From: an uncultured Gammaproteobacteria bacterium
Lineage (GTDB): Bacteria; Patescibacteriota; Microgenomatia; JAUYPR01
DNA: 64,000 bases
Direction: 5' to 3'
Assembly (NCBI GenBank): GCA_964372495.1
Contig: CAYJQU010000001.1
Coordinates: forward strand, 2,935-66,934
The position numbers were made by a program, and so were the translations under genes. A model generated the notes under the pieces. It did not search any database and had not been told where the DNA came from. It saw nothing but the letters and a program-made list of their open reading frames with translations. Shown in pieces: positions 11,900 to 64,000 of the stretch. How positions within the stretch are numbered: the first letter of the stretch is position 1; every line of letters starts with the position of its first letter.

Positions 11900-11991
11900 T
11901 TCAAATCAATTAAGCAGATTCATGTGATACATATTGTTTGTTACTAGTGAGCTGAGTGATGTTGTAGGGTGTGGTAAAGTACGAGGACCAC

Positions 11992-26218: not shown

Positions 26219-27910
26219 GTGCAAAAACAACAGGCAGTAGCGCTGGCATTGGTAATTCTTTCCTCGCTCATTGCGTTGCTGCCCTATTTTAGCAGAGGAA
26301 TTCCGCGTACGTATGACTCCTATCATCGCCTCAGCCGAGCGGCAAAGTATTACGTGGCCTTGCACCAACACCAAATTCCACCACGCTGGATAGGGACTGT
26401 GGACCACGGGGTAGGAAGCCCGATTTTCGGTTATTTGTATCCTTTGGGTTACGTAATTACTGCTCTGTTACATATGGGTGGAGTGACGCTTATAGACGCT
26501 ATGCGCTTCTTGTATATTGCGGGATTTATGGCCTCTGGACTTACTATGTATTTGTTTCTCAGGACCCAGTTTAGTACTCTTGCCTCACTCACCGGCGCGT
26601 TGCTATATCAGTGGGCCCCCTACAGAACGGTACAGCTCTATGTGCGAGGTGCCCCTGAAGAAATCATCGGGTACGCGCTAGTGCCTCTTATATTCCTGTC
26701 CCTCTATCGCATATATCGGGATCAAAAACATGCTTGGTTTGTATGTGGTTTGCTGATGGGTTTACTTATTCTTACAATCGGGACGGTTACCGTTCTCTTT
26801 ATGCCCCTCCTCGTCAGTTTCGTTGTGGGGTTAACTATTCTATTTCGCAAGCTAGCATACATAAGGCAGTTTACAAAATCAGTAGTGCTCGCGGTTGCTA
26901 TCGGATCGATTATTCTCATACCTTACTTTTTTGAACGATCTCTTATCCAACTTAATAATGTCTATGCTGTATACAAAGATAATTTTATATCTCTTACCTC
27001 CCTTATTCATGCTCGATGGACCTTTGTTCCTACACCCCAGGAGCTTGGAAAACCTCACCTGTTGGTTTTGGCATTGAGCGCCTACATTATATTTAAGCGG
27101 CGTATTGCATCTGTCTTCCTTCGCTATCTTTTTATTATGCTCATTGCATGGGCGGTGCTATATCTGCTCTTGGCAGTCGATAATCCATTCACCCGTACAA
27201 TGTGGCAGCATGCTTCATTTCTCAAGGTGGTTTATGTTCCTACCTTACTGTTAGGGCCCTTGGTATTTTTTACAAGTACACTCGCCGCTTTCTTAATCTC
27301 GCTACTGCGCTACAGAGTGTTACTCAGTACTGTGCTCGTATGGTCAGCATTAGTCCTCAATATCTCGGCAGTAAAGGCTGAGTCCTATATGTATGAGCAT
27401 GACGCGAATTTGTATTCACTCAATGGCACTACGGCAGGGTTTGATGAGTTTCTTCCTGTCGCCGCGCGCAAATTCGGAGACTTTTTCATCCAGGCTGAGG
27501 CCCTCACGCCTGTATTGGGGTCACTTCAATACACGATACTGCAACAGAGGTATCACAGTTGGATAGTATCGTTCAATGCTGCTAGCGATGACCGGCTCAT
27601 TATTCATCAACTCTATTTTCCAGGGTGGCGTGCACGTATTGACGGTCGTGCGGTTCCGCTTGGCTACACGATGCCCTCAAAGGACGAAGCGGTAGCAAAG
27701 AAAACGCTTGATCAGGGACTTATGGTGGTATCTATACCACGCGGTGTCCATACGCTGACCCTTGAGTACAAAGGTACGCTCGGCCAGAAAGCTGGGGAAT
27801 TGATTACGGGTTTGGGATTAGTTTTTATTGCAGGGTATGGTCTTGTACACCGCGACTATATCTGGAGACACATTCGTAAGCGAGATGCACGCAGTAACAC
27901 TTTGGTGTAG
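26210..27910 (+). CDS. Divergent YfhO-like polytopic membrane protein
   Basis: 566 aa. N-terminal YDSYHRLSRAAKYY...PPRWIGTVDHGVGSP is shared with the 40347(-) and 54844(-) genes. C-terminal LYFPGWRARIDGRAVP matches the YfhO C-terminal motif. Confidence 0.6.
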   Translation: MIHVQKQQAVALALVILSSLIALLPYFSRGIPRTYDSYHRLSRAAKYYVALHQHQIPPRWIGTVDHGVGSPIFGYLYPLGYVITALLHMGGVTLIDAMRFLYIAGFMASGLTMYLFLRTQFSTLASLTGALLYQWAPYRTVQLYVRGAPEEIIGYALVPLIFLSLYRIYRDQKHAWFVCGLLMGLLILTIGTVTVLFMPLLVSFVVGLTILFRKLAYIRQFTKSVVLAVAIGSIILIPYFFERSLIQLNNVYAVYKDNFISLTSLIHARWTFVPTPQELGKPHLLVLALSAYIIFKRRIASVFLRYLFIMLIAWAVLYLLLAVDNPFTRTMWQHASFLKVVYVPTLLLGPLVFFTSTLAAFLISLLRYRVLLSTVLVWSALVLNISAVKAESYMYEHDANLYSLNGTTAGFDEFLPVAARKFGDFFIQAEALTPVLGSLQYTILQQRYHSWIVSFNAASDDRLIIHQLYFPGWRARIDGRAVPLGYTMPSKDEAVAKKTLDQGLMVVSIPRGVHTLTLEYKGTLGQKAGELITGLGLVFIAGYGLVHRDYIWRHIRKRDARSNTLV

Positions 27911-29251: not shown

Positions 29252-30259
29252 ATGATTATCAGGGCTCGCGCGCCGCTGCGCATAAGCTTTTGTGGGGGGG
29301 GCACTGATATTACACCGTACCCAGAGCAGAAGGGCGGCGTGGCGTTGTCGGTGACCATTGACAAGTTTGCATACGTCTCGCTGCAGCCCCGAGACGATGA
29401 GCGGTTGGTAGTTAAGTCACTCGACTATAATATTACTGCTCGCTACAAGCTCAATGAGCAGCTCATCTATGATGGCGAGCTTGATTTAGTAAAAGCGGTC
29501 GTAAAGTCGCTTGGGCTTGAGCGTGGGGTAGACCTTTTTCTCCACTCAGACGCGACGCCAGGATCTGGCCTCGGGTCTTCATCCTCTATGATGGTAGCGC
29601 TGCTTGGTGTTTTCAACCACTGGCTACGCCGCACTATGACTGCGTATGAAGTGGCTGAGCTTGCCTACTTTATTGAGCGAAAGAGCTTGGGTAGCAAAGG
29701 TGGTCGGCAAGATCAATTTGCATCGGCGTTTGGCGGATTTAATTTCATGGAGTTTGAAGCAGATACCACTATCGTCAACCCCTTACGTGTGCGTCCTGAA
29801 ATCTTTAATGAGTTGCATTATCATTTACTTCTAGTAGCAACGGGTGAGTATCGCAGTGCCAGTCGACTACAGCAGGAACAGCTTCGCGAGCCAGCAGAGC
29901 GAAGCGGGTCAGATGTGGACCCCTTGGATACCATGAAGGAGATTACTCTGGAGATGAAAAAGGTTTTATTGCGAGAGCAGCTAGACTCCTTTGGGGCGCT
30001 TCTCCATGAAGCGTGGCTCGTCAAGCAGCGGACGCATAAAGATATAGCCAGTAGCGGCATCGAAGAGATCTACGAAGCGGCTCGTGAGCGTGGTGCTACT
30101 GGTGGTAAAGTTTTGGGAGCTCCTGGAAGTGGATCACTCCTTTTGTACTGCGCATTTGACAAAAAACAGAAGATAGCAAAATACTTGGTCCAGAAGGGAG
30201 CAGAGATCGTGCCATTTCACTTTGAGGCACAGGGATTACAGACGTGGGATGTCAAGTAG
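29252..30259 (+). CDS. hddA: GHMP kinase, D-glycero-alpha-D-manno-heptose-7-phosphate kinase
   Basis: MIIRARAPLRISFCGGGTDI...PGSGLGSSSS (GHMP ATP motif). The ATG lies 2 nt after the upstream stop. Contains a G8 tract at 29294-29301. Confidence 0.8.
   Translation: MIIRARAPLRISFCGGGTDITPYPEQKGGVALSVTIDKFAYVSLQPRDDERLVVKSLDYNITARYKLNEQLIYDGELDLVKAVVKSLGLERGVDLFLHSDATPGSGLGSSSSMMVALLGVFNHWLRRTMTAYEVAELAYFIERKSLGSKGGRQDQFASAFGGFNFMEFEADTTIVNPLRVRPEIFNELHYHLLLVATGEYRSASRLQQEQLREPAERSGSDVDPLDTMKEITLEMKKVLLREQLDSFGALLHEAWLVKQRTHKDIASSGIEEIYEAARERGATGGKVLGAPGSGSLLLYCAFDKKQKIAKYLVQKGAEIVPFHFEAQGLQTWDVK
29294..29301. repeat. G8 homopolymeric tract inside hddA codons 15-17 (GGG GGG GGC)
   Basis: ttttgtGGGGGGGGcact, encoding the GHMP N-terminal CGGGT. 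The frame is intact here. Confidence 0.8.
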
Positions 30260-46410: not shown

Positions 46411-47167
46411 TCTGATTACGAGAATGAAATACGCCACTCATGTCGGTAGCTCTTTGTCCATGCGCCTTGTTTACCTTACTGGGAAGTATCCATATCCAGT
46501 ACATCCGAAGCACTTGGTATCAAACCCATTGTGGTTTAAGAGAGTATTGAGAAAGAATGCGCGGGTGCTTGATTTGGGTTGTGGTAATGGGCAGATAACA
46601 CTCAAAAGTGCCCAGTATTGTCACTGGATTGTAGGGGTGGAAAGAAATCCAACAAATCTCGAGACGGCACATACAGAAGTGAGGAAACGGAGTATCCACA
46701 ACGTTTCCTTTGTCAGGGCTGACTTGGAGCAGCAACTACCGTTTCACGCACAATCGTTCGACGTAGTGCTTCTGCTTGACGTACTGGAGCATGTGGAAAA
46801 GGATGCTCAACTACTGAGGGGAATACATAGGATTTTGACAAAACGTGGAGTTGTGTGTGTGGCAGTACCGAATCGTGAGACACGCTGGAAGAGGGAACAA
46901 CGAAAAGCTGGTTTGTCCGGTTACTCCGACAAGGATCACAAGCGGGAATACACAGAAGAAGAAATTCGGGGTTGCATGGAAGCTTCTGGATTCCAAATTC
47001 AATCGATCGAACCGGTCACCTACGATACATGGGCTGCAGGACTGATTGATCTATTAGGGGGAATTTCTCTGTCTCTCTATGACAGATGTAGTGTATGGAA
47101 AAGACGTATGGTTATTCGATATCCGGGGGAGACGACAGGGTGGCGGATTATAGGGCAAAAATTATGA
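46403..47167 (+). CDS. Class I SAM-dependent methyltransferase
   Basis: VLDLGCGNGQ (motif I), FDVVLLLDVLEHV, GVVCVAVPN. Overlaps the upstream gene by 8 nt. Confidence 0.7.
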   Translation: MRSLITRMKYATHVGSSLSMRLVYLTGKYPYPVHPKHLVSNPLWFKRVLRKNARVLDLGCGNGQITLKSAQYCHWIVGVERNPTNLETAHTEVRKRSIHNVSFVRADLEQQLPFHAQSFDVVLLLDVLEHVEKDAQLLRGIHRILTKRGVVCVAVPNRETRWKREQRKAGLSGYSDKDHKREYTEEEIRGCMEASGFQIQSIEPVTYDTWAAGLIDLLGGISLSLYDRCSVWKRRMVIRYPGETTGWRIIGQKL

Positions 47168-48396
47168 AGGTTCTCCAGGTTCTTGATTATTACCGTCCGT
47201 ATGGCGGAGGGGGAGCTGAGTGGAGCGTGCTTGAGTTAAGTCGGGGTCTTCGTGAGTATGGTATTGAATGTACTACGATCGCTCCAGGATGGGGGGAGCC
47301 GTCGGAGGAGAGTGCGTATGGAATATTCAGTTCGTTTGCTGTACCAGTGCGGCCCAAGCCAAACAGCGTTCTATCTCCAATATGGCTCTCAAATCCTTTT
47401 TTCTGGGTGTGGTCGGGGCTATGGATTCTTTTGAAGATCATAGCCGAACGCCCCGATATAGTGCATGTTCATGGAAAATATATGATTCCAGGTTCTGTTA
47501 TCGCTGGTGCGGTGACTCGGGCGAAAATAGTAGTAACACTGCGGGACTATATTCCGTTATGCCCGTGGGGCGTATGTCTTTTTGGTGGCGGGAGTACTCA
47601 CAAGGGCATAGTAGATTTCCTCAGTGACGAGCTTCCACAGTATATGCGTCTTTATGGGCTCCAAGGGAGTTGGCGAAAGGTCGTAGTCCTCCTAGGGGGC
47701 TTATGGGGGTTTGTGTATGCTGCAATCTTAAGAGGCTGCTTATCAAGGGCAACTCAGGCCATCTATTTATCTGATCTACAGGCTGGTTTCTATCGCAAAA
47801 GTGGATACCCAAAAGGTGTGATTATTGGGAATCGCTGTACGGTGGATCGGTCCAAGATATATAGGGTTACGAATACAGTATTGTACGCTGGGAGACTGAG
47901 TTATGGAAAGGGCGTTGATAGATTACTTGCAGCGTGGAAAGCGATCGTCGAGAAAAAACCTGGATGGCAGTTAGTGTTGTGCGGAGACGGACCGCTCCGT
48001 GAGCTGGCTGAATTATATCGGCGTCAGCAAAATAGAATTATCATACAGGGGTATAATTCCCACGAGGAACTTTTGAGAATGTATAAAAAAGTCGCGTTTA
48101 CCGTTGTGCCATCGGTATGGCCGGAGCCGTTTGGGCGGGTAGTCATGGAGTCGGTTCTTTCTGGGACACCCGTCTTGGCAACTACCCATACTGGTACCGC
48201 AGGATTCGTACGCTCGTGCCGGGTGGGGTGGATTGTAGAGCCAGATGTTGATGCGCTTTCTAGGGGACTTTTCCTGGCAACTGCCAATGCGGCCTCAATA
48301 CGTAGAAGGATTGGAGCGCAACGCAGTCAACTCGCAACTCAATGGGATACTGCGGTTGTTGAGGAACACATGAGAATATACAGGAGCTTTTTATGA
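47164..48396 (+). CDS. Glycosyltransferase family 4 (GT-B)
   Basis: MKVLQVLDYYRPYGGGGAEW... and C-terminal VVPSVWPEPFGRVVMESVLSGTPVLAT. ATGA overlap. Confidence 0.8.
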   Translation: MKVLQVLDYYRPYGGGGAEWSVLELSRGLREYGIECTTIAPGWGEPSEESAYGIFSSFAVPVRPKPNSVLSPIWLSNPFFWVWSGLWILLKIIAERPDIVHVHGKYMIPGSVIAGAVTRAKIVVTLRDYIPLCPWGVCLFGGGSTHKGIVDFLSDELPQYMRLYGLQGSWRKVVVLLGGLWGFVYAAILRGCLSRATQAIYLSDLQAGFYRKSGYPKGVIIGNRCTVDRSKIYRVTNTVLYAGRLSYGKGVDRLLAAWKAIVEKKPGWQLVLCGDGPLRELAELYRRQQNRIIIQGYNSHEELLRMYKKVAFTVVPSVWPEPFGRVVMESVLSGTPVLATTHTGTAGFVRSCRVGWIVEPDVDALSRGLFLATANAASIRRRIGAQRSQLATQWDTAVVEEHMRIYRSFL

Positions 48397-49481
48397 GGCT
48401 GGGGATTGTTTTGGCACCGGGGGAAAGTCTTGCGGTGTTGCGTGAGTCAGGTCAGGATGAGCGGTTTCTGAAGTACTACATTCCCCAGTATGAACGGGCG
48501 TTTGAGCATATCAGCCTTTTTTCATACGCAGCTGAGTCCCATGTGATTTCAACAAAGACCAGCGTTGTGCCAAATCGACATTATCTGAACCGTTTCCTGT
48601 ACCTGGCGCTCATGCCTTTCCTGACGCCTCTTGGTACATGTGATGTGATACGAGTAACTCAGGCTACCAGCATCTTACCTGCTGTTCTTGCCAAGTGCCT
48701 CTTTGGCAGTAGGGTAGTGGTGACGTATGGCTATGATTACGTTGCTTTTGCCAAGGCCGAGGAGAAACAGCTTCTTGCGTTCCTACTTCCTTACTACTTG
48801 CACCTTTTGCGTTTTGCGGATGCGGTCATTGTTACAACTCAGGATCTCAAGATTACTATCAAGCCATTTGCGGGAAGTGCCAGAGTAGTACTTATTCCAA
48901 ATGGGGTTGATTTGGATTTCTTTACCCCCAGCAAGAAGCAAAAGGGGCCGCCGTGGAACGTACTGTATGTGGGTCGTATGGAGCCAACCAAAAATGTTGA
49001 TACACTTATACGTGCGGTTGCATCGACCGATTGCGCCTCTGAAATTCATCTGACGTGTGTGGGTTCTGGTAGCAAGCGCGCAAAGCTTTTGGGGTTGGCC
49101 AAACAACTTGGAGTTAAGGCAAGATTTACGGGAGCAGTGCCACACACCAAGCTACCGCTCCTGCTTAAGGAAGCACATGTGTTTGTGCTCATATCGAGCG
49201 CTGAAGGACATCCCAAAGCACTCATTGAGGCACTAGGGGCAGGGCTTCCGTGTCTTGTGTCAGAGGAAGCAGGACGTGCGGTGGGGATACGAGATGGAGA
49301 GGAAGGAGTCACCGTTGCGGTGGAAGTTCCGGAAGTTGCTCGTGCGTTGTATGCGTTACTCTCCATGCGCTCTTTGGGGGTAATGGGAAAAAAGGCCCGT
49401 GCTTTGGCTGCTACCCATTTCGACTTAAAAAAACTGTTAGGCAGAGAAACTGATCTGCTTATCTCTCTGTGCCTTCGATGA
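48393..49481 (+). CDS. Glycosyltransferase family 4 (GT-B)
   Basis: C-terminal FVLISSAEGHPKALIEALGAGLPCLVSE. ATGA overlap. Confidence 0.75.
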   Translation: MRLGIVLAPGESLAVLRESGQDERFLKYYIPQYERAFEHISLFSYAAESHVISTKTSVVPNRHYLNRFLYLALMPFLTPLGTCDVIRVTQATSILPAVLAKCLFGSRVVVTYGYDYVAFAKAEEKQLLAFLLPYYLHLLRFADAVIVTTQDLKITIKPFAGSARVVLIPNGVDLDFFTPSKKQKGPPWNVLYVGRMEPTKNVDTLIRAVASTDCASEIHLTCVGSGSKRAKLLGLAKQLGVKARFTGAVPHTKLPLLLKEAHVFVLISSAEGHPKALIEALGAGLPCLVSEEAGRAVGIRDGEEGVTVAVEVPEVARALYALLSMRSLGVMGKKARALAATHFDLKKLLGRETDLLISLCLR

Positions 49482-50563
49482 AAGTTCACTTTCTCTTCCC
49501 ATCTCCAAAGAAGCCATGGGTTGCACTAGTGAAGAACGGCAAGGCACCTGATCATCCACTGTATGGTCTCACCTATTTTCCAGGGTTAGGTCTGGATGTG
49601 TCCTTTAGCGACAAGGGATTTACCGATAGTATCGCTAGTTTTCTGTTTTCTCTAGTTGATCGGTGGTTTCGGTCGCGGACGTACATGGGTTTTAAGCCAC
49701 TTGTCGTACTGGCGCAGCTGGTCGAAATGAGGAGAGCACAGGTGATTGTCAGTTTTGCTGAGAACGTAGGCCTGCCAGCATTGCTGTGTAAAAAACTTAG
49801 ATTTATTTCTGCCCCTGTCGTTTTTGTAAGCATTGGCTTTGACCACAGATTCTTGCGGCGAGCATCTTTTATGAGACGATTTGTGGGGATTTTACTAAAA
49901 GAAGCCAGGCGGATTGTCGTATACTCAAAAAAGGAGAAGGAAGTGTATCATAAAGTTTTTGGGATTTCACCGGAGAAATTACGCGTGGTTTCCCTGGGAG
50001 TGGATATGGAGTTTCTCAGACCAGAAGAGTCTGAAGAGCCAATTGATATTCTTGCAGCAGGAAGAGATTACGGGAGAGACTTTGGCACATTGCTTGAGGC
50101 TATACGCGGCACCCAGTATACGGTTGTGCTCGTTTGCCCAAAAGAACACCTGCCAAATACCCCGTTACCAGAGAACGTAACACATTACGAGCATGTCAGC
50201 TATAGGAAAATGCGTACGCTGTACAGCAAAACTAAGATTGTTGCAGTGACAGTGCATCCCTATAAGACGTCCGGCCAATTCGGTATTCTTGAGGCATGGG
50301 CGATGGGAAAGGCCGTTATTGCAAGCGATGTTTCGCGTATTGTGACTGCGTTTTCAGCAGTTGACGGAGAACATTATCGCCTTGTTACTCCAGGAAGTGT
50401 CACCAAGTTACGCGAGGTGATTGACGAACTACTCGGAAGTGCCTCGCTGTGGAGACGCTACGGGCGGCAAGGACGGAGCTTAGTAGTACATAATCACACC
50501 AGCAAGTCCTATGCTCAGGCAGTGGCCTCTGTAGTAAAGGAAGTTGTTGATGGGCAAGGCTGA
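49478..50563 (+). CDS. GT-B fold glycosyltransferase (GT4-like, divergent)
   Basis: C-terminal HPYKTSGQFGILEAWAMGKAVIASD. ATGA overlap. Confidence 0.6.
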   Translation: MKVHFLFPSPKKPWVALVKNGKAPDHPLYGLTYFPGLGLDVSFSDKGFTDSIASFLFSLVDRWFRSRTYMGFKPLVVLAQLVEMRRAQVIVSFAENVGLPALLCKKLRFISAPVVFVSIGFDHRFLRRASFMRRFVGILLKEARRIVVYSKKEKEVYHKVFGISPEKLRVVSLGVDMEFLRPEESEEPIDILAAGRDYGRDFGTLLEAIRGTQYTVVLVCPKEHLPNTPLPENVTHYEHVSYRKMRTLYSKTKIVAVTVHPYKTSGQFGILEAWAMGKAVIASDVSRIVTAFSAVDGEHYRLVTPGSVTKLREVIDELLGSASLWRRYGRQGRSLVVHNHTSKSYAQAVASVVKEVVDGQG

Positions 50564-51641
50564 GCTGTCGGTTTGCTATTTCGGGTCTTATGCCCGCAAG
50601 TATTCGCGAAACAAGATACTGATTGATGGTCTTACGAAAAACAACGTAGTAGTTTTGCATTGCCAGAGCTCATCTGGTTTGTTCCTGTGGCGCTACGCAG
50701 AGCTTCTGAGGACCTATTGGCCACTTCGAGGTAGTGTCGATGTAGTACTCGTGGGATTTCGAGGACATCTGGATATGCCGCTGGCGTGGCTCCTTGGCAG
50801 GATAAGTGGAAAGAAGATAATTTTCGATGCGTTCATCTCTATTTACGATACCTACTTAAATGATAGGAAGATTTTTTCAAAGTATAGCATTCGCGCAATT
50901 TTCTATTATATCGTTGACTGGTTTGCGATTACACTTGCCGATCATGTCGTATTAGATACAAATGCTCAGATTGATTATTTTACGAGGACTTTTCGGCAAC
51001 CCCGTAGTAAGTTTACTAGAATATTTGTGGGTGGGGATGATACCGTATTTGTTCCACGGAAAAAGAGACCAAAACAATATATTCTTGTCGAGTGGCATGG
51101 TATTTTCACTAGGTTGCATGGACTGGAAACTGTGCTTGAGGCGGCAAAGCGTCTTGAGCAAAATTCCCAGATACGATTTTTAGTGATAGGTGATAATCCA
51201 CATTTTCGGATATCTGATCGGGCGCACCAGCTCCTGACGGTGAAGAAGCCCAAGAATCTCTTATGGGAGAGGTCGCTGCCGCTTGAGCAGCTTGCGCAAC
51301 GTGTGACTGAAGCTGACATCAGCCTTGGCCACTTCGGTACAACAGAAAAAGCGCTCAACGTGTTAACAAATAAAATCTTTCATGGACTAGCTGTAGGGAA
51401 CGCGGTGATTGTAGAAAGCTCTCCGGCGTCCAGTGAGCTACTGACCGATGGCATCAATTGTGTCTTTGCGAAATCAGGGGATGCGAAGAGTTTAGCACAG
51501 AAGATTGAATATTTGGTTGAGAATGAAGATGTGCGTTCCAGGATCGCCGAAGCAGGGCACTCTTTATTTTTTGAAAGACTGACGAATTATAAGCTGGGAG
51601 GGGAATTAAAGCGATGTATTCTGCAGGTAATAGAGATCTAA
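50550..51641 (+). CDS. Putative GT-B fold glycosyltransferase (divergent, AT-richer gene)
   Basis: 365 aa. Rossmann-like alternation. C-terminal GNAVIVESSPASSELLTDGINCV resembles the GT1 donor-binding region. Last gene of the + operon. Confidence 0.5.
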   Translation: MGKAELSVCYFGSYARKYSRNKILIDGLTKNNVVVLHCQSSSGLFLWRYAELLRTYWPLRGSVDVVLVGFRGHLDMPLAWLLGRISGKKIIFDAFISIYDTYLNDRKIFSKYSIRAIFYYIVDWFAITLADHVVLDTNAQIDYFTRTFRQPRSKFTRIFVGGDDTVFVPRKKRPKQYILVEWHGIFTRLHGLETVLEAAKRLEQNSQIRFLVIGDNPHFRISDRAHQLLTVKKPKNLLWERSLPLEQLAQRVTEADISLGHFGTTEKALNVLTNKIFHGLAVGNAVIVESSPASSELLTDGINCVFAKSGDAKSLAQKIEYLVENEDVRSRIAEAGHSLFFERLTNYKLGGELKRCILQVIEI

Positions 51642-51653
51642 AATTTCTTCGGT

Positions 51654-51691
51654 AGAGTATGTTCAATATATCAGTATATTGAACATACTCT
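51654..51691. terminator. Bidirectional intrinsic terminator: perfect 17-bp inverted repeat with 4-nt loop
   Basis: AGAGTATGTTCAATATA-tcag-TATATTGAACATACTCT, followed by TTTTAATG on + and an A/T-rich stretch on -. Lies between the convergent 50550(+) and 51693(-) genes. Confidence 0.6.
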
Positions 51692-51692
51692 T

Positions 51693-53006
51693 TTAATGTC
51701 GTGCTAAGAACTCGGTTACAACGTCGGCAACATAGTTTCGTTCTTGCTTTCCAATCCCCGGCCAGACGCCGATGAAGAATGTGTCTTCGAGTATTTTGTC
51801 TGAATTGGTGAGCTCGCCAACGACGCGGTGAGGGATATTACGATACGGTGCATGCCGTAGAATGTTTCCTGCAAAGAGTGAGCGAGTCTCGACCAGATGC
51901 TCTTCAAGATACAGGGTAATATCTCTTCGAGAAAATGGCGCGCCATCTTTAATAGTGAGGGGGAAGCTGAACCAGCAAGGATCGGCTTTTGGCAGCGACC
52001 GCGGGAGTATGAAATAATCTTCATACTTTTTGAATAATTGATAAAAGAATTCAAAATTTTCTCTTCTTTTTTTCACAAATTCAGGAAATCGGTCCAGTTG
52101 CACAAATCCCATTGCGGCTTGTACCTCCGTAGGTTTGAGGTTAAAGCCTATATTGGCGAACATATACTTGTGGTCCGCGGGATGCCCGTTAATGAGGAAA
52201 CCAAATCGATTATTGCAAGCTCCCATGGGGTTTTGCTCAGTTGATTTGCAGTAGCATGCCCGTCCCCAATCCCTCAATGAGAGAGCAGTCTTGTACAACC
52301 GTTCGTCGCTGACGAACACGGCTCCTCCTTCGCCAGCTGTTGTCATATGATGTGCAGGGTAGAATGACTCAGTAGCCAGAATGCCGAAACTTCCCGTTTT
52401 TTTGCCCGCATACTCCGATCCAAGAGCATCGCAATTATCTTCAATCAGGAGCAACGCGTGTTCCTTGCACAGACGCGTAAGTGTGTCCATGGCGTTTGGG
52501 TTTCCAAGTGTATGCGGGACAAAGATGGCCTTTGTTTTGCGACCGATGGCGTCTGAAAACTTCTCGGCAGGTATGTTTAAGGTGTCGAGTGCAACATCCA
52601 AAAAGACTGGTGTAAGTCGGTAAAAAAGGAGTGGATTTACGGTAGTTGGAAACGTGCAGGCTGGTGTAATGACCTCGTCACCCTCACGAAGTCCCCAGGA
52701 GAAATTTGGTGACGAGAGGGTAGCAATGGCAAGCAAGCTTGCCGATGAACCACTATTAGTAAGAAGTGCTTTCGGCACTCCTATATAGGAAGCAAGTTTT
52801 TTTTCTAGTTGTTCGCCTAAGGATCCGAGTCCAAACCACCCGTCTAGTATCGCGGTAACCATCGCCGTTACTTCCTGTTCGCCATAGTAGGCACCCGCAT
52901 AGCGGACGCGGGTTTTTCCCGGTATGAATTGGCGCATCTCCTGTTGGTGAGCGACGTATTGCTGGATGAGTGTAAGCAAGCGTTTTTTTATGGTATCGCC
53001 CTTCAT
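51693..53006 (-). CDS. DegT/DnrJ-fold PLP/PMP enzyme, CDP-4-keto-6-deoxyglucose 3-dehydrase (RfbH/DdhC, E1)-like
   Basis: 437 aa. LRDWGRACYCKSTEQNPMGACNNRFG...HKYMFANIGFNLKPTEVQAAMGFVQLDRFPEFV. The Cys cluster after DWGR and the overall pattern resemble RfbH/E1 rather than a plain aminotransferase. Confidence 0.65.
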   Translation of the reverse strand: MKGDTIKKRLLTLIQQYVAHQQEMRQFIPGKTRVRYAGAYYGEQEVTAMVTAILDGWFGLGSLGEQLEKKLASYIGVPKALLTNSGSSASLLAIATLSSPNFSWGLREGDEVITPACTFPTTVNPLLFYRLTPVFLDVALDTLNIPAEKFSDAIGRKTKAIFVPHTLGNPNAMDTLTRLCKEHALLLIEDNCDALGSEYAGKKTGSFGILATESFYPAHHMTTAGEGGAVFVSDERLYKTALSLRDWGRACYCKSTEQNPMGACNNRFGFLINGHPADHKYMFANIGFNLKPTEVQAAMGFVQLDRFPEFVKKRRENFEFFYQLFKKYEDYFILPRSLPKADPCWFSFPLTIKDGAPFSRRDITLYLEEHLVETRSLFAGNILRHAPYRNIPHRVVGELTNSDKILEDTFFIGVWPGIGKQERNYVADVVTEFLARH

Positions 53007-54005
53007 TTAGTTGGCCCAGTAGTGGGATTTGTATTGGCGATAGAAGGTAATCGTCTTTGCGAGCCCTTCCGTAAGTGGTGTTCTGGGCTTCCAGCCAGAG
53101 ATAGAGTGAAACTTTTGGTAATCACCGATATAGTCTCCGCTTTCGATCTTTCTGCGCTCCTCAGTGTACTCCTTGTATTCAATGCGTCCACTTTTGGCGA
53201 TTTCAATGGCTTGTTGAACGAACGCAACGAGTGATACTCCCTGGTTACTACTTATCACGAATGCATTCCCTTCTGCCTCAGGGATACTGGCTGAAAGCAG
53301 GAATGCGTGTGTTGCGTCGTCTACGTGTAGAAAATCACGCAGCTGCTTGCCATTTCCGAAGATTGGTACTGCTTCGTCATCAATGATCAGGCGGAGAAAG
53401 AAGTTTTGTACGCCGTATTTTGTATGCTGCATCTGGTGTCGATGACCGTAGATATTGGTGAGGCGCAAACTGACAGCTCTGAGCCCACAGATGCGACGGT
53501 AAATAAAGTGATAGTGCTCACCGGCGATTTTATGTGCGCCATATATGTCGATTGGTTCCATCGGAGTTTCTTCGGTAACTGGCAGTGCAGCAGGAACCCC
53601 ATACTGTGCTCGAGACCCAGCGTACACTACCAACACATGCGGATTAACCTCGCGACAGGCTTCTAGCAGTGTAAGCTGGCCACGACAGTTTATATCGAGG
53701 TCTAGGTAGGGATCTTTCATGCTATCGACATGGCTTGTTTGTGCTGCGATGTTAAAAATAATGTCCTTTTCTTTAACAGCTTTTTGTATTGCCTCGCGGT
53801 CACGTATGTCTCCCGTGATGAAGTGTACGCGATCCCTGATCTCCTCTATATTAAAAAGATTCCCCCCGTACCCTGGTAGGAGCGCGTCATAAAGGGTTAC
53901 ATCTGCCTTAAATTCGATAAGGGCTTGGGCAAGATTACTTCCTAGAAAACCTAGTCCGCCAGTAATAAGAATCTTCTTTCCCGGGAAGAATTGTGTTGGA
54001 TTCAC
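53007..54005 (-). CDS. NAD(P)-dependent sugar epimerase/dehydratase (extended SDR)
   Basis: ILITGGLGFLGSN (Rossmann) and the YGAHK catalytic YxxxK. Immediately upstream of the RfbH-like gene with no intergenic gap. Confidence 0.75.
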   Translation of the reverse strand: MNPTQFFPGKKILITGGLGFLGSNLAQALIEFKADVTLYDALLPGYGGNLFNIEEIRDRVHFITGDIRDREAIQKAVKEKDIIFNIAAQTSHVDSMKDPYLDLDINCRGQLTLLEACREVNPHVLVVYAGSRAQYGVPAALPVTEETPMEPIDIYGAHKIAGEHYHFIYRRICGLRAVSLRLTNIYGHRHQMQHTKYGVQNFFLRLIIDDEAVPIFGNGKQLRDFLHVDDATHAFLLSASIPEAEGNAFVISSNQGVSLVAFVQQAIEIAKSGRIEYKEYTEERRKIESGDYIGDYQKFHSISGWKPRTPLTEGLAKTITFYRQYKSHYWAN

Positions 54006-54025
54006 GAGCCAATTGTATCAAATTT

Positions 54026-54847
54026 CTATTGACGCGGCCGTTTTGTAGCTACCACAAAGATGTTAGCTCTGAAATCAGAATCGCTTCGGATGTACGAGGC
54101 AAGTGGGCGGAACAGTTTTACGCGTGTGCCTCTTGCAAATACCCTTCTAGTTCCATACAAGATTTTATACAGTTGGGAGGGTACCGAGAACGGTAATCCA
54201 AGTTCAAATAACATCAGCATCCTGGGAGTAATCGTTCCAGAAACTGACTCGATGGTGAATCCCGCGTTCTTGGCTAAAGCTAGCCATCTTCTTTCCGACG
54301 GGAGAAATACGTGCTTGAACGCTTTGTTAATAGCCCTATAGTAGAGGTGGGCAAGTGGCTCAAGGCTTAGCGCTCGTAGGATTTTTACCATGAGCAGTCC
54401 TGAGTACAACTGGTTAGTAGGCACTGAGAAGTAAAAACGGCCGCCCAGCTTTAGTATTCGATATACCTCCTGAAACACACGTTCATTGTTGGGTATATGT
54501 TCAAGTGTGCTGATAGAAATAACAGTGCCAAAACTTCGTGCTTTGAATGGTAAGTCTCGAGCGTCGGCTACAATGGTCTTGCGATATTTTCCGCAAGAGG
54601 TGGCATGGAGTATCTCTTTTGGACTAATATCAAGACCCACTTCAACTTGCGAGGAAAAAAACACACCGCCAAATTCACCAAAGCCACAACCAATATCGAG
54701 CACTGGTTTCGTGAGTCTATGCTTAGCCAGCTCTTGCGCTTCACCGGAGCGCCAAATGGCAAGTGACAGTGGAGCTATTCGTAGATACCTCTCAAAGTAC
54801 ACTGAGCTTGCAGTTGGTAGCGTCTCTTTGGATAATGTGGTAGTCAT
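54026..54847 (-). CDS. Class I SAM-dependent methyltransferase
   Basis: VLDIGCGFGEFG, FGTVISISTLEHI, LGGRFYFSVP. Confidence 0.7.
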   Translation of the reverse strand: MTTTLSKETLPTASSVYFERYLRIAPLSLAIWRSGEAQELAKHRLTKPVLDIGCGFGEFGGVFFSSQVEVGLDISPKEILHATSCGKYRKTIVADARDLPFKARSFGTVISISTLEHIPNNERVFQEVYRILKLGGRFYFSVPTNQLYSGLLMVKILRALSLEPLAHLYYRAINKAFKHVFLPSERRWLALAKNAGFTIESVSGTITPRMLMLFELGLPFSVPSQLYKILYGTRRVFARGTRVKLFRPLASYIRSDSDFRANIFVVATKRPRQ

Positions 54848-56454
54848 CGTCGGCGGAGGCTGCCTAGCAGAAGAGAACCGGCCATTCCCAGGGAGGAAAC
54901 AAGCGAGATGTTGTTACCAAGTTGGCGCAGGGGTGTTTCCGTGAATCGAAGCGTCAACGTATACGTGCCGGCTGGTATCACAGAGGTTATCATACCAGAG
55001 GGCTCAATGGGAATCTCTGTACCGTTTCTCGTCAGTCGCCATCCTGGGAAGTTGAGGATGGAGAACTGTATGTGCGAGTCTGTGGCGACGTTGGCAGACA
55101 ATTTTGCATTAGCGGCTTTCCGGTCTGTGAGCAGTAGGGTTGCATCCCCTGAGAGAACCTTTGCAAATTCTTTGGGTGTATTGTTTGCATGTTGCGGCGC
55201 GCCCTTTGGTAGAAGATACACGTCAAGCTTTTTCGGATCGTAGAAGGATTGATAATACTGTGTATCTTGGTGATGCCAGCCATGCCCTGATGAATAGTGC
55301 CTACTGGGTGTAATAGCCAGTATCACAAGTAGTAAAAATAGTACCGTTGGTAAGCGAACATGGGAAATTGTGTACGCTGCCAAAAAGCTAGTAACGAACG
55401 TAGTAAGAGTAAGAAACCGCCATGGGAAAAGAAGGGTGCGCAAGGGTGACACATTATCCCACAGAAATTTACTGTAGGTAGTTATAAGGAATATCGCAGC
55501 AATGCTGAGGAGTGCGCCAAACAGTGGTACGACAGGGACACTCCGCCGTCGCAGCAAGATCAAAGAGCATGCCGAAAACCCGGCAAGCAGGAATATACTT
55601 TGGGTGAGACCAACTTGAATTCCAGTGCCAATCGGTTTGCCAATGATCGGAAAGTGAACTAACTGGGCCAGTGGCAGAAGGTGACCCTCATAAATGGAGA
55701 AGTACGTTTTCTCAAGTTCTACATACTGTTGTTCAAACACCATAGGAAACCACTGATAAGCGGCAAGCAAAAAGCCAAGAGCCGTCGAAACGCAATAAAG
55801 GAAGATAGCGCTGCGCTGTTTGTGGAGAATGTAAAAAGCGTACAGAAGTGCAATGGGTAGAAATATCATGAGGGTCAACGCGTGCGTGGTGATAAAACCA
55901 AAGAAAATGAGTGCCGAAAAAATAATCCATTTATGGTCTCCCCCGCGGAGTTTGTGTGGAGTGAGGAAAAGGAGCGGAATAAAAATGAACGAAAGTGCCT
56001 CTCCGAGAGCTCCACGTTCGTATAGATCCGCAAGCCGATAGGGAGCACTTATATAAACGATGGAACCGAAGAGGGCAGTCTTTTGGAAAAAATAGGTTCT
56101 CAGAAATGCAAAGCAGGTAATTCCAGAAAGTGCGGTGGAGGCAAAAAGGAGCAGTTTAAATATCGACTCAAAATCGAGGTATGTGGCCAGGTGAATAAAC
56201 GCTCCGATGTAGTATGGCAAACTGTAGTTGTATACGAACGTCGGATACCCATAGCCAAAGTACCAGTTGTCGAGCCAGCGAACGGGAACATGACCTTCCT
56301 GTAATGCCTTTGTGAATTGCGCAAGTCGCGCAATGTGGATTGTGCCGTCATGCGATGTAAAGACTCCTGGAGTTAGGAGGTTGCTTGCAAGGATAAAAGA
56401 GATTATTACGATTAGTATCTGCGGCCAGTAGTGAAAACGGCGAGGCCTCTTCAT
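54844..56454 (-). CDS. Divergent YfhO-like polytopic membrane protein
   Basis: N-terminal FTSHDGTIHIARLAQFTKAL...VPVRWLDNWYFGYGYP and C-terminal LNFPGWRLTRNGTEIP. Paralog of the 26210 and 40347(-) genes. Confidence 0.6.
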   Translation of the reverse strand: MKRPRRFHYWPQILIVIISFILASNLLTPGVFTSHDGTIHIARLAQFTKALQEGHVPVRWLDNWYFGYGYPTFVYNYSLPYYIGAFIHLATYLDFESIFKLLLFASTALSGITCFAFLRTYFFQKTALFGSIVYISAPYRLADLYERGALGEALSFIFIPLLFLTPHKLRGGDHKWIIFSALIFFGFITTHALTLMIFLPIALLYAFYILHKQRSAIFLYCVSTALGFLLAAYQWFPMVFEQQYVELEKTYFSIYEGHLLPLAQLVHFPIIGKPIGTGIQVGLTQSIFLLAGFSACSLILLRRRSVPVVPLFGALLSIAAIFLITTYSKFLWDNVSPLRTLLFPWRFLTLTTFVTSFLAAYTISHVRLPTVLFLLLVILAITPSRHYSSGHGWHHQDTQYYQSFYDPKKLDVYLLPKGAPQHANNTPKEFAKVLSGDATLLLTDRKAANAKLSANVATDSHIQFSILNFPGWRLTRNGTEIPIEPSGMITSVIPAGTYTLTLRFTETPLRQLGNNISLVSSLGMAGSLLLGSLRRR

Positions 56455-59611: not shown

Positions 59612-61507
59612 ATGACGGTAATTTTTGCTTTTACGAAAAATGATGCACTCTGGGCCGTTCGCTGGCAGCGCCAGTCAAAAAATTCGGTGAAGATTCTTGC
59701 GCCTACTATTGCTGCACAAATGGTTCTTCGTAAAGAAAACATTCCTCCCCATACGTATTTCTCCGAGGTTCTCCACCGTCCCCATAACTACGCTCAACGG
59801 ACGCTAACGCTTGGCAGGCGCACTTATAACACAACTCGCGTATTTCTGGAGCAGTTTGATAATTCGCTCGAGATATGCGGGGTTCCTCTTAAAACAATCC
59901 TGACTTTACGTTTTGAATATGAATTCTATGTAACTATCGCAGCTTACGACCTATATAAAAACATTGAACGTACCTGGCATCCAAAAGAATACATAGTACC
60001 TACTCACCAGTCAGTAGGAGATACCTTGGGAAATACCGATGCAACGTGGTTTTCAGCATTTGCGATAGCCCATTACTTTGCTCCTGCCGAGAAAGTTCGT
60101 TACTACCAAAATGAGGATTACCTCCTAGGAATTGCTGATAAATTGCGCCGCCTGACGTCGTTTGTATTTCCAGTAACCGTCGCTACAAAAAAAATTCTGA
60201 TCACAGGAAGGCGCCGATTGTCTGATATTTTCCGGTGGATATACCCAATTCACCTGACGCCGCGAGATATCCTATTTTATTCATTTGGGTATAATCTTGA
60301 TTACTACCATACGTTCTTTAAGATGGCGAGGACGTGTGGTTTTATAGACAGGATGCATGTTATTTGCGGCACACAGCCACTTGAGGCTGAATGGTTACTC
60401 GATTTTCACCAAATACCTTTCACACCACTTCGACATTTGATTGACTCCAGTCTCAAACGGAAAATACGTGCAGAAGCTCAAAAAATCTCTTACCGCATAT
60501 CACGCATAAAAACTCGAACACTGATGCAATGGTTGCCACAAACAAACCCTGCGTCACTCAAACGCGCGCTCGCCGACAGAGCATTTTTTGTAATACAGAG
60601 TCTAGCAACGCGATATATTCCACATGTTGCTGTCTCGGAGCTTGCTATGAATAAGATTAGACCGAAGCTGGTTATTACCACTCACGATCCAGCACCATCA
60701 GCATCACCGTTTGTTATCCTTGCTAATAAACATAACATCAATACGCTGCTCCTTTTACATGGAGTTATAGATGATTCCCAGATGGGCGCTTGGTTTCAAA
60801 GCAAAGACATTCAGTTATGGGGTGAATGGATGATAAAAAATTTTCCCACCTGTAAGAATCGCACAAGCCAGCCTAAACTGCATACAACGGGTTTTCCCTG
60901 TCTCGATAACGCATTTCACGAGCGGGATACGTTGCAAAAATTTTCGTATCAATACCTTTCTTCTAAAAAACCACTCATTTTTACACTTCTCCTCACCCAG
61001 TATCTTCCCGATACATTCGTCATGTCGAAGTTTCTCGACGAACTCTTTTTTGAGCTAAAAAGGGAGCATGTCTCTGTTCGCATAGTTGCTCGCACTCACC
61101 GAGGACAATCGACTACAGGATTCCATGAGCTGGCGCAGTACTATGACATCCAGTTCGCCCTCAACAACCATCAGTTACTTGAGACTCTGATCCGCAATTC
61201 GGACCTTGTGCTTTCAATGGATACAACCGCAATCCTCTGGCCGATGATCGAAAAAAAACCGCTCTTTTATACGACCCCCTGGTGGGGCAGCGGAACTCTA
61301 CCTATCAAGGAATATAACGCTGCCTATATACCTGAAAGTGCCCAACACCTTATTCAGAAGATAAAGCAATACACCCGTATTCCTAGCCTTGTTACGGAAT
61401 ACTATGAGAATCAGCAGCTTTTCTTAAAGGAGTTTGCTGGTATGGCCACTAGTGACTCATCAAAAAGGACACTTGACCTCATAAGATCCTTTCTAGACAT
61501 AGATTAG
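59612..61507 (+). CDS. Large soluble protein of uncertain function; weak resemblance to the CDP-glycerol glycerophosphotransferase (TagB/TagF, Glyphos_transf) C-terminal domain
   Basis: 631 aa, low-GC gene. The C-terminal stretch NSDLVLSMDTTAILWPMIEKKPLFYTTPWWG resembles the TagF-family segment (sD.LITDYSS...kP.i.Y.PTWR). Two A8 tracts lie in the coding sequence. Confidence 0.35.
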   Translation: MTVIFAFTKNDALWAVRWQRQSKNSVKILAPTIAAQMVLRKENIPPHTYFSEVLHRPHNYAQRTLTLGRRTYNTTRVFLEQFDNSLEICGVPLKTILTLRFEYEFYVTIAAYDLYKNIERTWHPKEYIVPTHQSVGDTLGNTDATWFSAFAIAHYFAPAEKVRYYQNEDYLLGIADKLRRLTSFVFPVTVATKKILITGRRRLSDIFRWIYPIHLTPRDILFYSFGYNLDYYHTFFKMARTCGFIDRMHVICGTQPLEAEWLLDFHQIPFTPLRHLIDSSLKRKIRAEAQKISYRISRIKTRTLMQWLPQTNPASLKRALADRAFFVIQSLATRYIPHVAVSELAMNKIRPKLVITTHDPAPSASPFVILANKHNINTLLLLHGVIDDSQMGAWFQSKDIQLWGEWMIKNFPTCKNRTSQPKLHTTGFPCLDNAFHERDTLQKFSYQYLSSKKPLIFTLLLTQYLPDTFVMSKFLDELFFELKREHVSVRIVARTHRGQSTTGFHELAQYYDIQFALNNHQLLETLIRNSDLVLSMDTTAILWPMIEKKPLFYTTPWWGSGTLPIKEYNAAYIPESAQHLIQKIKQYTRIPSLVTEYYENQQLFLKEFAGMATSDSSKRTLDLIRSFLDID

Positions 61508-61516
61508 TGTACGCTT

Positions 61517-62240
61517 TTATTCTTTCTTACCGACAAAGATCCAACGGAAGCTACTTTTTATATCAAACATACTGATATCATAGTAGCCTGTTGTGAGTGC
61601 CTTAAACATTGAAAAAAGATTTACTAGCTCATCGACATCCCGCACACAATAAATAATTTCATGAAGACCATAGAGTCGGTGAGTTTTGTCATCAATGCGG
61701 ATATCGTATATGTTTTCATTGTAGACTGCTTTTGTATGATATCTAATGTAGGAGTTGGTTGGACCTGCAATAGTGATAAATATGACACCTCCTGGTCGAA
61801 GACATCGATAGAGGTCCTGACATACTCTTTTGATATATTCTGTTGAGGACAGATATTCCATTACCTGGTTAACGATCACTATATCAAAGAAATTATCTTT
61901 GAAAGGGAGTTGCTTAAAGTGGATTGGTATGAGAGAGAAACGGGATAGATGCTTACTGTCGATATTTCGGCTCTCAAAATTTTCTCGTACAAGATCAGTA
62001 AAGTTTTTTGCAACATCAACTCCCCAAACGTCGTAGCCTTTTTCTATAAAAAATAAACTATTGTTGCCCGCTCCACAGCCGTAATCGAGCACACGGCCCC
62101 TCGGGATATGTTTTTTTTAGGTAAACATTGTGAAATTGAATGACCCATAACGTTGGGTATCGGAGGAAGGCTTCTTTCGCAGCATAAAGTCTTTCATAGT
62201 TTTCCCTGTTGACCCTGCGCATATCGCTCTTTTGGTTCAT
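61517..62240 (-). pseudogene. SAM-dependent methyltransferase interrupted by a +1/-1 frameshift in an A8 (T8 on +) homopolymer; candidate phase-variable gene or sequencing error
   Basis: The N-terminal ORF 62058..62240 (...NRENYERLYAAKEAF...VYLKKTYPEG) and the C-terminal ORF 61517..62092 (VLDYGCGAGNNS..., motif I) are in different frames. Deleting one A from the A8 run (+ strand T8 at 62111-62118) gives a continuous ...LKKHIPRGRVLDYGCGAG... reading frame. Confidence 0.6.
62111..62118. repeat. T8/A8 homopolymeric tract at the frameshift site of the methyltransferase gene
   Basis: tatgTTTTTTTTagg on +. The frame switch maps exactly to this run. Confidence 0.8.
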
Positions 62241-62298
62241 GATTACCCTTTGTAAAACAAGATTGTATTATATCGTGTTACGTGGCTTTTTACCAGAG

Positions 62299-63042
62299 CT
62301 AGATGAACCGATAGCCTTTCGAGCGGAATTCGCGAATGCACTCCGCTGTTGGTGTCTTATAAATTCGTGCATCAAGTTGCGGGGCCTTTTTGAAATTTAT
62401 GGGCTGCGATAATATGGTATTGATAAGCCGTGCGCCTGTCTGAAAAACTTGTTCGTAGAGTTTAAAAATGCTACGATGCGCGATCGGAATGATCTCTTGC
62501 GCAAGCATAGGACCATGATCAAGGACATTTGTCATCTTGTGTAAGGTTACGCCGATCTGTGGCTCATTGTGGTACAGTGCCCAGAAGATAGGGTAAAGAC
62601 CGCGGTATTTTGGGAGAAGAGAAGCATGCTTATTTATCCACCCCCATCGGGGAATTGCTAGTAAGCTTTTTGGAACGAATTGGCTTGTTTGTGCTACGAT
62701 AATATCTGGTTTCAGGGAATGTAGGATAGTTGTGGCATCACCTGAGTTGAGGGATGTAAAAAGGAACGTTTGTATCCCATGGCGGCGCATTGTTTCTGCT
62801 ACGGAAATTGGGGGATGATTCCAAAAGAAGGATACGCATTTCCTGTACATGTAGACTATACACAGCTTTGCCAGTTCCTGCGGTGAAAGAATCCTGGCGA
62901 TTTCTGTAAGCGATGCAAAAGAATTTCTCCTATACGGGTGAATAATACACCCAACGACTTTATTTCCATGAGCGGTAAGTATCTCGTTGAAAAAAGCGGG
63001 GAGGAAGAACGGTTCTTCAAATGAAACAAGCACAATTCTCAT
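62299..63042 (-). CDS. Sugar N-formyltransferase (Formyl_trans_N family; Fmt/ArnA-N/VioF-like)
   Basis: MRIVLVSFEEPFF... and HASLLPKYRGLYPIFWALYHNEPQIGVTLHKM (formyltransferase SLLP motif with catalytic His). ATGA overlap with the upstream deacetylase. The ORF-track extension to 63114 was not used. Confidence 0.7.
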   Translation of the reverse strand: MRIVLVSFEEPFFLPAFFNEILTAHGNKVVGCIIHPYRRNSFASLTEIARILSPQELAKLCIVYMYRKCVSFFWNHPPISVAETMRRHGIQTFLFTSLNSGDATTILHSLKPDIIVAQTSQFVPKSLLAIPRWGWINKHASLLPKYRGLYPIFWALYHNEPQIGVTLHKMTNVLDHGPMLAQEIIPIAHRSIFKLYEQVFQTGARLINTILSQPINFKKAPQLDARIYKTPTAECIREFRSKGYRFI

Positions 63043-63983
63043 AAGAAACGATCTTGTCGGACTATTTCTGCAATAGCTTGTAACGTCGTGAACTTGTATC
63101 TGCTTGAAAACCAAGAGAGAATCGCGTGATAGATGTATGTTCTCTCCTTTGCGCTCCTCTGCATTCCTGGGTGCCGAGTGAACCAGGAAAAACCTTCGGA
63201 TGGAGAGTCAACGAGGTCAATGCCATGTATCTCAAAATTGATGAACGACATCTTTTCAAGAAGAGGCGAGACAAGCCGGAAGTAATTCGTTCCGAGCGCA
63301 AGCTGGGTTGTACCAAATAGAGGTAATCGTACAGTAGGCACCACCGTAATCGGAATTTCTACGAGCGGGGAATCTAAGTCGGTCTGCGTAACAGATGTTG
63401 AGGCGCAGCGATAGGGTTTCAGCGGCGCAGTAATGACAGAGATCGGCCCCATACTGGCAAGTGAAGCACGTTGTTTGGTTTTCAAATACAATGCGGCTCG
63501 TAAAAGTGGATGTGCGATGGTTGGGTGCACCGAGGAATCATACCAGTATCCAAGCCTTTTCAATATTTGAAGCGTGTCGCTGTCGATGTTATACCCAGGT
63601 GCTCGAAAACCAACCATTGTATAGCGAAGTTTTTGCCATACCAGCTCATGCGTTTTTTTCACCTCCTCAGCTTTCATTTCCTGGGTTAGTTTATGAAAGT
63701 TATGATGATGGCTATACGTGTGGTTGGCTATCTCGTGACCCTTGGCCAGAATCGCTTTAAGAGCGGCGAGTCTTTTCTTGTTCGTTAAGTCTCTTCCGAC
63801 AACGAAAAAGGTAGCCTTTGCACTGAACTCATCAAGGAGCTTCAGTATACGGGGCAGGCTTTGTTCATACACGTATTCTTTTGTAGGCGTAAAGGTCTGT
63901 ATGCCGTAGACTTTGGCATAGTCTAATTCATGATCGAGATCTATTGAAACGGATACAGTGCGGTTAGGTGGAATTTTTAGCAT
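63039..63983 (-). CDS. Polysaccharide deacetylase (CE4, NodB homology domain)
   Basis: ATFFVVGRD...HEIANHTYSHH (NodB motifs 1-2) and FRAPGYN. Confidence 0.75.
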   Translation of the reverse strand: MLKIPPNRTVSVSIDLDHELDYAKVYGIQTFTPTKEYVYEQSLPRILKLLDEFSAKATFFVVGRDLTNKKRLAALKAILAKGHEIANHTYSHHHNFHKLTQEMKAEEVKKTHELVWQKLRYTMVGFRAPGYNIDSDTLQILKRLGYWYDSSVHPTIAHPLLRAALYLKTKQRASLASMGPISVITAPLKPYRCASTSVTQTDLDSPLVEIPITVVPTVRLPLFGTTQLALGTNYFRLVSPLLEKMSFINFEIHGIDLVDSPSEGFSWFTRHPGMQRSAKERTYIYHAILSWFSSRYKFTTLQAIAEIVRQDRFL

Positions 63984-64000
63984 AGTAAGTGATAAGTTCG

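Follow-up and report, generated by a model that had tools for sequence, protein, structure and literature searches.

A poly-A tract found as A7 and A8 in a predicted surface-sugar methyltransferase gene of an uncultivated bacterium: a possible phase-variable switch

When a methyltransferase gene of an uncultivated bacterium is broken at a run of eight adenines, is the break an error of sequencing or assembly, the lesion of a gene that is being lost, or one of the two positions of a switch? The question arose from a 64-kb stretch of DNA (64,000 nucleotides, here called the window), for which a reading made from the sequence alone had proposed a phase-variable locus. In a few host-adapted pathogens, the ON/OFF switching of glycan-modifying genes by homopolymers is well known. 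To our knowledge, uncultivated environmental lineages have hardly been studied in this respect, and no paper dealing with phase variation in Patescibacteria was found in the literature searched, where the two terms came up together in a single paper, once each and on a different subject.

The gene for a class I SAM-dependent methyltransferase of 240 aa lies on the - strand (61517..62240), and a +1 frameshift interrupts it at an A8 homopolymer (- strand; T8 on the + strand, 62111..62118). In frame 0, the reading starts from an ATG at 62240 on the - strand and covers 43 native codons to ...FHNVYLKK. Beyond the tract, frame 0 continues for 17 out-of-frame codons (TYPEGPCARLRLWSGQQ) up to a TAG at 62060-62058, and the resulting 5' ORF of 60 aa (62058..62240, - strand) therefore consists of 43 native residues and a 17-residue out-of-frame tail. 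This ORF was called as a separate gene on the contig of a second sequencing run, ERR3478686, too. The +1 frame reads VLDYGCGAGNNS... from the tract up to a TAA at 61519-61517, and its sequence directly after the tract can also be written HIPRGRVLDYGCGAGNNS...; it contains a 3' ORF of 191 aa from a GTG at 62092 (61517..62092, - strand), which begins at strand beta-1 and SAM motif I. The tract occupies codons 41-44 of 240, near the 5' end of the gene, and is made up of the last base of Leu41 (CTA), Lys42 and Lys43 (AAA AAA) and one surplus A. When the frames were re-read, the sequence-only reading, which had placed a one-nucleotide offset between the two ORF pieces at exactly this run, was found to be correct in every detail.

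Deletion of one A yielded a 240-aa protein containing ...YLKKHIPRGRVLDYGCGAG... The repaired junction, YLKKHIPRGRVLDYGCG, agreed with the consensus YLKxxIPxGRVLDYGCG in an alignment of 23 full-length homologues as well as with the sequence of the four closest intact copies, which are in frame with A7, and the repaired protein retained all of the invariant columns of the family alignment (35/35). The proposal that removing one A restores the protein was thus borne out. With respect to tract length, the locus behaves as a homopolymeric-tract phase-variable locus should, the A8 tract breaking the frame and the A7 tract giving a full-length protein that matches the consensus.

The repaired protein matched Pfam Methyltransf_11 (2e-18) and Methyltransf_25 (8e-17) above the gathering scores. 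A database search returned 33 homologues, of which the closest, about 26-28, were all approximately 240 aa long and covered 94-100% of the repaired protein. The glycine-rich SAM motif I, LDYGCGAG, was invariant across the family alignment, and an AF2 model (pLDDT 91) showed a Rossmann fold with class I methyltransferases as the top PDB matches. Both defining features of a class I SAM-dependent methyltransferase, the Rossmann-like fold and SAM motif I, were therefore present in the repaired protein. With regard to the substrate, no assignment came from NCBIfam, from a PDB sequence search or from Foldseek, where all matches were to class I methyltransferases in general, at 19% identity or less, and there was no NCBIfam equivalog match.

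The 191-aa fragment of the A8 allele keeps SAM motif I and the whole Rossmann core, and its GTG at 62092 is preceded, at a distance of 4 nt, by the Shine-Dalgarno-like hexamer GAGGGG (62097..62102, - strand), a candidate internal start site. These features would be expected if the broken gene encoded a functional split enzyme, the fragment being active alone or together with the 60-aa peptide. However, helices 3-20 and 31-44 of the predicted structure are missing from the fragment, and these helices (within residues 1-48) hold 15 residues that are invariant or nearly so, FLRYP, W32 and FHN among them, so that loss of function is expected for the OFF allele. The hexamer encodes conserved P-R-G residues and is for this reason probably fortuitous rather than an evolved start signal, and the number of split genes among the homologues was zero. 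A functional split enzyme is hardly credible on this evidence, and the fragment, which is without the most conserved part of the protein in the model, is presumably inactive.

To compare the same locus in independent material, same-species contigs were located in two sequencing runs by exact-sequence look-up of neighbouring proteins, and the comparison comprises three observations of the species, all of them assemblies. In the contigs of ERR3478686, which span 43,969 bp of the window, 45 SNPs and 0 indels were counted, and the A8 tract was present with the identical 60 + 191-aa split. In contrast, an A7 tract and an intact gene, called as a 234-aa protein (P0035), were present in the three contigs of ERR4904391 (L004, L081 and L083), which agreed with the window at all other bases covered (8,675 of 8,675). 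One A in the tract was the sole difference between contig L004 and the window over 2,989 aligned bases, which places the break at the tract. Different tract lengths, A7 and A8, were thus found in otherwise identical DNA (0 SNPs in 8,675 bp), as represented by assemblies in which a mosaic consensus is possible. A natural A7/A8 polymorphism at this locus is very probably real.

Further copies were sought more widely. When the 60-aa ORF, the 191-aa ORF and the formyltransferase encoded next to them were looked up by exact protein sequence, the ERR3478686 contig alone was matched, and neither a tract-spanning degenerate pattern nor a conserved gene-internal pattern had a match in JGI metagenome contigs. 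A scan of GTDB genomes gave no close relative, the best match being 54% identical and from a SAR202 MAG, which indicates that the species is not represented in the GTDB genomes scanned.

Homopolymers are a classic site of consensus errors, and a sequencing or assembly error in either the window or contig L004, with one tract length in nature, was the mundane alternative put forward at the outset. The window strain and the ERR4904391 contigs, being otherwise identical, could also come from related read sets. This explanation has to contend with the A8 tract being repeated in the ERR3478686 contigs, where 45 SNPs and 0 indels were counted in 44 kb. Moreover, all 22 tracts of at least 7 nt in the parts covered by ERR3478686 had the same length as in the window (ungapped alignments), as did six of the seven covered by ERR4904391, including a G8 and three other 8-mers. 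The methyltransferase gene was the sole broken gene among approximately 53, and long ORFs tiled the rest of the 64 kb without gaps. A second broken gene had been suspected at 121-594 and was found to be an intact gene cut by the edge of the window. Finally, A7 was found in all relatives, so that neither length is implausible. With A8 in a second strain, A7 in otherwise identical DNA, intact orthologues and no sign of decay, an error has become very unlikely.

The tract was then compared in near and distant relatives. An intact gene with exactly A7 at the homologous site was present in three public assemblies, L001, L077 and L002 (88%, 86% and 80% aa identity, respectively), where the tract codons are CTA/TTA AAA AAA CAT/TAT/CAC. 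Together with L004, the A7 state was therefore found in all four intact relatives, and the comparison with related genomes that the sequence-only reading had called for gave orthologues that are intact and hence not split. No A run was found at the tract position in more distant members of the methyltransferase family. Since A7 occurs in the near relatives and no run in the distant ones, the window allele represents a one-base insertion in a clade-specific A7 tract. AAA was used in all four relatives at 7 of the 12 invariant Lys columns of the gene, and conservation of AAA AAA at the tract was not significant when tested against codon usage (AAA vs AAG, four relatives).

The in-frame A7 state of these four relatives also bears on recoding, by which the A8 allele would still yield full-length enzyme, either through RNA-polymerase slippage with loss of one A or through +1 ribosomal frameshifting on AAA-A. 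Poly-A runs are known sites of transcriptional slippage; in Citrobacter rodentium tssM1, slippage at an A11 run results in approximately 20% frameshifting (PMC4256274), and the run found here would permit re-pairing of tRNA-Lys. Like tssM1, the present gene has an internal poly-A run beyond which the reading continues in another frame. In tssM1, however, the out-of-frame layout is conserved and functional and the run is A11, whereas the relatives of the present gene are in frame and its run is A8, shorter than documented slippage sites. Recoding would moreover need a shift of +1 or -2, and no stop or rare codon and no stimulatory element was evident at the site. Ribosomal frameshifting by -1 on A-AAA-AAA was rejected, as the -1 frame meets a stop after approximately 23 codons. 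Recoding as a source of the full-length enzyme is accordingly given very little weight, and at most a leaky expression of the OFF state would be expected from it.

If the A8 allele were an old pseudogene, further decay should be visible. The pairwise dN/dS of the repaired gene was 0.118 and 0.10 compared to L001 and L077, respectively, and 0.086 was obtained between the intact L001 and L077 genes. There was a single lesion, the invariant residues were kept, dN/dS was within 0.10-0.12 and an identical intact allele exists, none of which is the picture of a decaying pseudogene. From the nearly equal dN/dS, the lack of a second lesion and the occurrence of an identical intact allele in nature, it follows that the inactivation is recent or intermittent. 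Two outcomes had been named in advance as contrary to a switch, a consensus error and a fixed pseudogene with split orthologues; neither was encountered, as both ON and OFF alleles exist and the orthologues are intact.

The differences between the window and ERR3478686 were unevenly distributed. SNPs were strongly clustered at 7743-7845, 25721-27781 and 55181-55413, with eight of them within approximately 100 bp of one PMT_2 GT-C gene, and long SNP-free blocks extended over 46919-55180 and 59879-64000. Nearer to the tract, strain SNPs are located at 59504 and 59878. The clustering suggests recombination or localised diversification in glycosyltransferase genes. The left end of contig L004 corresponded to window position 59399, one base past a site at which the strains differ (59398), which hints that both strains co-occur in the ERR4904391 sample and break the assembly graph at 59398.

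How often the tract has changed bears on whether it acts as a switch or is a young frameshift. ERR4904391 carried the window allele at all three covered sites that separate the window from ERR3478686 (3/3), and the grouping of the window with ERR4904391, taken together with the A7 outgroup, implies at least two tract changes, either a gain plus a reversion or two gains; the grouping rests on these three sites. When the SNPs were polarised with L077 and L002 as outgroups, the two outgroups disagreed. No difference separates the window from ERR3478686 in the 4.1 kb that surround the tract (59879-64000), and with the SNPs clustered elsewhere, a single change could be enough if recombination or a mosaic consensus was involved.

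A single event would be sufficient for a one-off loss of function, in which A7 changed to A8 once in one lineage and the allele is a young pseudogene drifting or segregating among conspecific strains, and switching is neither elevated nor reversible. On this reading, the window contig would represent either a genuine A8 strain or a mosaic consensus in which co-occurring strains are mixed. One tract change is enough for this explanation given the uncertain rooting, recombination or mosaic assembly, and it is in keeping with a short tract, with a conservation no greater than codon usage predicts and with the position at which contig L004 begins, which suggests mixed strains in the sample. In contrast, it does not readily accommodate the finding that ERR4904391 equals the window at every strain-discriminating site covered and yet differs at the tract. 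A coverage-based mosaic would have to take the alleles of strain 1 at all 45 SNP sites and the allele of strain 2 at the tract alone. Secondary decay was also missing, with dN/dS at 0.1. A one-off loss of function is thus a possible but rather unlikely explanation.

The tract itself, at seven or eight A, is shorter than the classical poly-G contingency tracts and equals the length of inlA-type tracts. Saccharibacteria are without mutS and mutL (PMC8406219). Against a switch, no length variation was seen in the 26 other homopolymers of at least 7 nt in the window, which include six further 8-nt tracts, for example at 29294-29301, 60187-60194 and 61251-61258. In favour of a switch are the occurrence of A7 and A8 in identical backgrounds, the tract as the sole difference in 8.7 kb and the presence of A8 in two strains. 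The original claim of a phase-variable switch therefore stands in part. Both alleles exist in otherwise identical DNA, but the tract is short, its conservation does not exceed the expectation from codon usage, and one event plus a mosaic could suffice. On balance, we favour with moderate confidence a tract that behaves in a switch-like manner, recurrent or reversible, as a low-grade form of homopolymeric-tract phase variation of a glycan-decorating enzyme.

Which decoration would be affected was addressed from the genomic context. The methyltransferase gene stands last in a - strand cluster with the order NeuB, NeuC, a PylC-like ATP-grasp ligase, an RmlD-like reductase, a polysaccharide deacetylase (63039..63983, - strand), a formyltransferase (62299..63042, - strand; Pfam Formyl_trans_N 4.5e-20, a gene call from contig L003) immediately upstream of the methyltransferase, and the methyltransferase itself. 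The portion from the RmlD-like gene to NeuB lies past the end of the window and was read on the ERR3478686 contig. NeuB (TIGR03569) and NeuC (TIGR03568) both scored above their cut-offs, and the order was the same in L077, except that the RmlD-like gene was not called there. Homologues of the methyltransferase were located within 6 kb of NeuB and/or NeuC homologues in MAGs of Chloroflexota (SAR202), Acidobacteriota, Elusimicrobiota and Verrucomicrobiota. Owing to this adjacency to NeuB/NeuC here and in four other phyla, the enzyme most likely methylates a nonulosonic-acid (sialic-acid-like) derivative as a decoration of a surface sugar. Farther along, at 9259-12200 of L003 and past the window end, genes for a 379-aa Methyltransf_23 protein and a 602-aa carbamoyltransferase (NodU-like) are divergent from NeuB, and a DegT aminotransferase comes next. 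These genes point to further modifications of the same sugar, for example carbamoylation.

On its other side, the methyltransferase stop codon is separated by a 9-nt spacer from a convergent gene of 631 aa (59612..61507, + strand), the product of which had no Pfam or NCBIfam match. The gene was kept as the convergent neighbour of the methyltransferase in L077 and L002 (77% and 54% identity, respectively). Upstream, a TATAAT hexamer (62267..62272, - strand) was found 27 nt ahead of the ATG and was kept in all four lineages amid otherwise diverged spacer DNA. A scan for the sigma-70 consensus upstream of the methyltransferase gave no full promoter and no matching -35 element. The conserved hexamer suggests that the methyltransferase gene may have its own promoter. 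The gene had also been described as low in GC, and its GC content of 38.5% (GC3 34%) was indeed the lowest in the window, approximately 3.9 SD below the gene mean of 48.1 +/- 2.5%. This composition suggests a different ancestry or horizontal acquisition.

The placement of the tract inside a glycosylation island was likewise confirmed, the whole 64-kb window forming one such island. At least 14 GT-C membrane glycosyltransferases (PMT_2, YfhO and PTPS_related) were present, among them a tandem of three large YfhO genes (11971-19260) and a fourth at 591-2726. The island also contained many GT2 and GT4 genes, five other methyltransferases and sugar-nucleotide enzymes, including a heptose-nucleotide pathway (SIS, NTP transferase, GHMP kinase and HAD). 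In the GHMP-kinase (HddA-like) gene, the GGG of SFCGGGTD is encoded by a G8 run (29294-29301, approximately codons 16-18). This run, of the classical phase-variation type, was of equal length in the window, ERR3478686 and ERR4904391. For one YfhO protein, all seven named database matches (7/7) were from Curtissbacteria, Levybacteria, Roizmanbacteria or 'Patescibacteria group', at 27-35% identity, which makes a Microgenomatia-like bacterium of the CPR (Patescibacteria) the probable source of the window.

Two known systems resemble the locus from different sides. Functionally, the closest known case appears to be Cj1325 (ptmH) of C. jejuni, compared here by genomic association with NeuB/NeuC. 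PtmH is an acetimidino-N-methyltransferase of the flagellar legionaminic-acid pathway, which converts CMP-Leg5Am7Ac to its N-methyl form (PMC3766260), and the tract in its gene ranges over G8-11, with G9 in frame, and varies within populations (PMC3025981). Shared by both are a SAM methyltransferase acting on a nonulosonic acid (predicted in our case), a glycosylation island next to NeuB/NeuC-type genes and an intragenic homopolymer with ON and OFF lengths. In contrast, the Cj1325 tract is a poly-G of 8-11 with high rates and mixed lengths measured in cultures, whereas the tract found here is a poly-A of 7 or 8 known from assemblies; C. jejuni is a host-associated pathogen, and the bacterium studied here is uncultivated and probably belongs to the CPR.

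Mechanistically, the closest known case would be the 5' poly-A tract of L. monocytogenes inlA, in which A7 is in frame and A6 frameshifted, the alleles differing by a single A (PMC2831843). Rates at that tract were 4e-8 to 5.5e-7, approximately 1000-fold above those of point mutation, and the frameshift has had at least two origins (PMC2831843). The two loci have in common the type and length of the tract, its position near the 5' end of the gene and the difference of a single A between ON and OFF alleles. They differ in that the OFF state of inlA is a deletion (A6) and here an insertion (A8), in that the rates for inlA are experimental, and in that InlA is a surface protein and the product here a glycan-modifying enzyme. 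The rates between A6 and A7 in inlA are also far below those of classical phase variation.

In the simplest mechanism, slipped-strand mispairing at the homopolymer during replication would add or remove one A (A7 <-> A8), as we infer from where the indel lies and from what is established about mutagenesis at homopolymers. The A8 state would give the 60-aa stub and at best the N-terminally truncated 191-aa fragment (OFF), and the A7 state the full-length methyltransferase (ON), so that the tract would serve as a mutational ON/OFF toggle. With the methyltransferase gene at the end of the cluster and probably under a promoter of its own, switching would change one glycan decoration without polar effects on sugar synthesis. 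The slippage itself, its reversibility, the substrate and any benefit to the organism are presumed rather than observed. Whether the locus goes further, being an evolved contingency locus in which a clade-specific poly-A tract reversibly toggles methylation of a sialic-acid-like sugar within a single strain of a CPR (Microgenomatia-like) bacterium, can be suggested only tentatively, and we consider it doubtful.

These findings show from public assemblies alone that both tract states occur in otherwise identical DNA, in the nonulosonic-acid cluster of a very large glycosylation island. The mechanism is of a known and familiar kind, here in an unusual organism. Should mixed tract lengths not occur within samples, the A8 tract would be an ordinary young frameshift allele. 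Should they occur, surface-glycan phase variation would extend to this radiation, and the methyl decoration of a sialic-acid-like sugar would look like a trait on which selection fluctuates, for instance through contact with phage or host. A true contingency locus would be the first documented repeat-mediated phase variation in the Candidate Phyla Radiation, and it would provide these tiny, probably episymbiotic cells with a heritable ON/OFF heterogeneity of the surface that may serve in phage evasion or host recognition.
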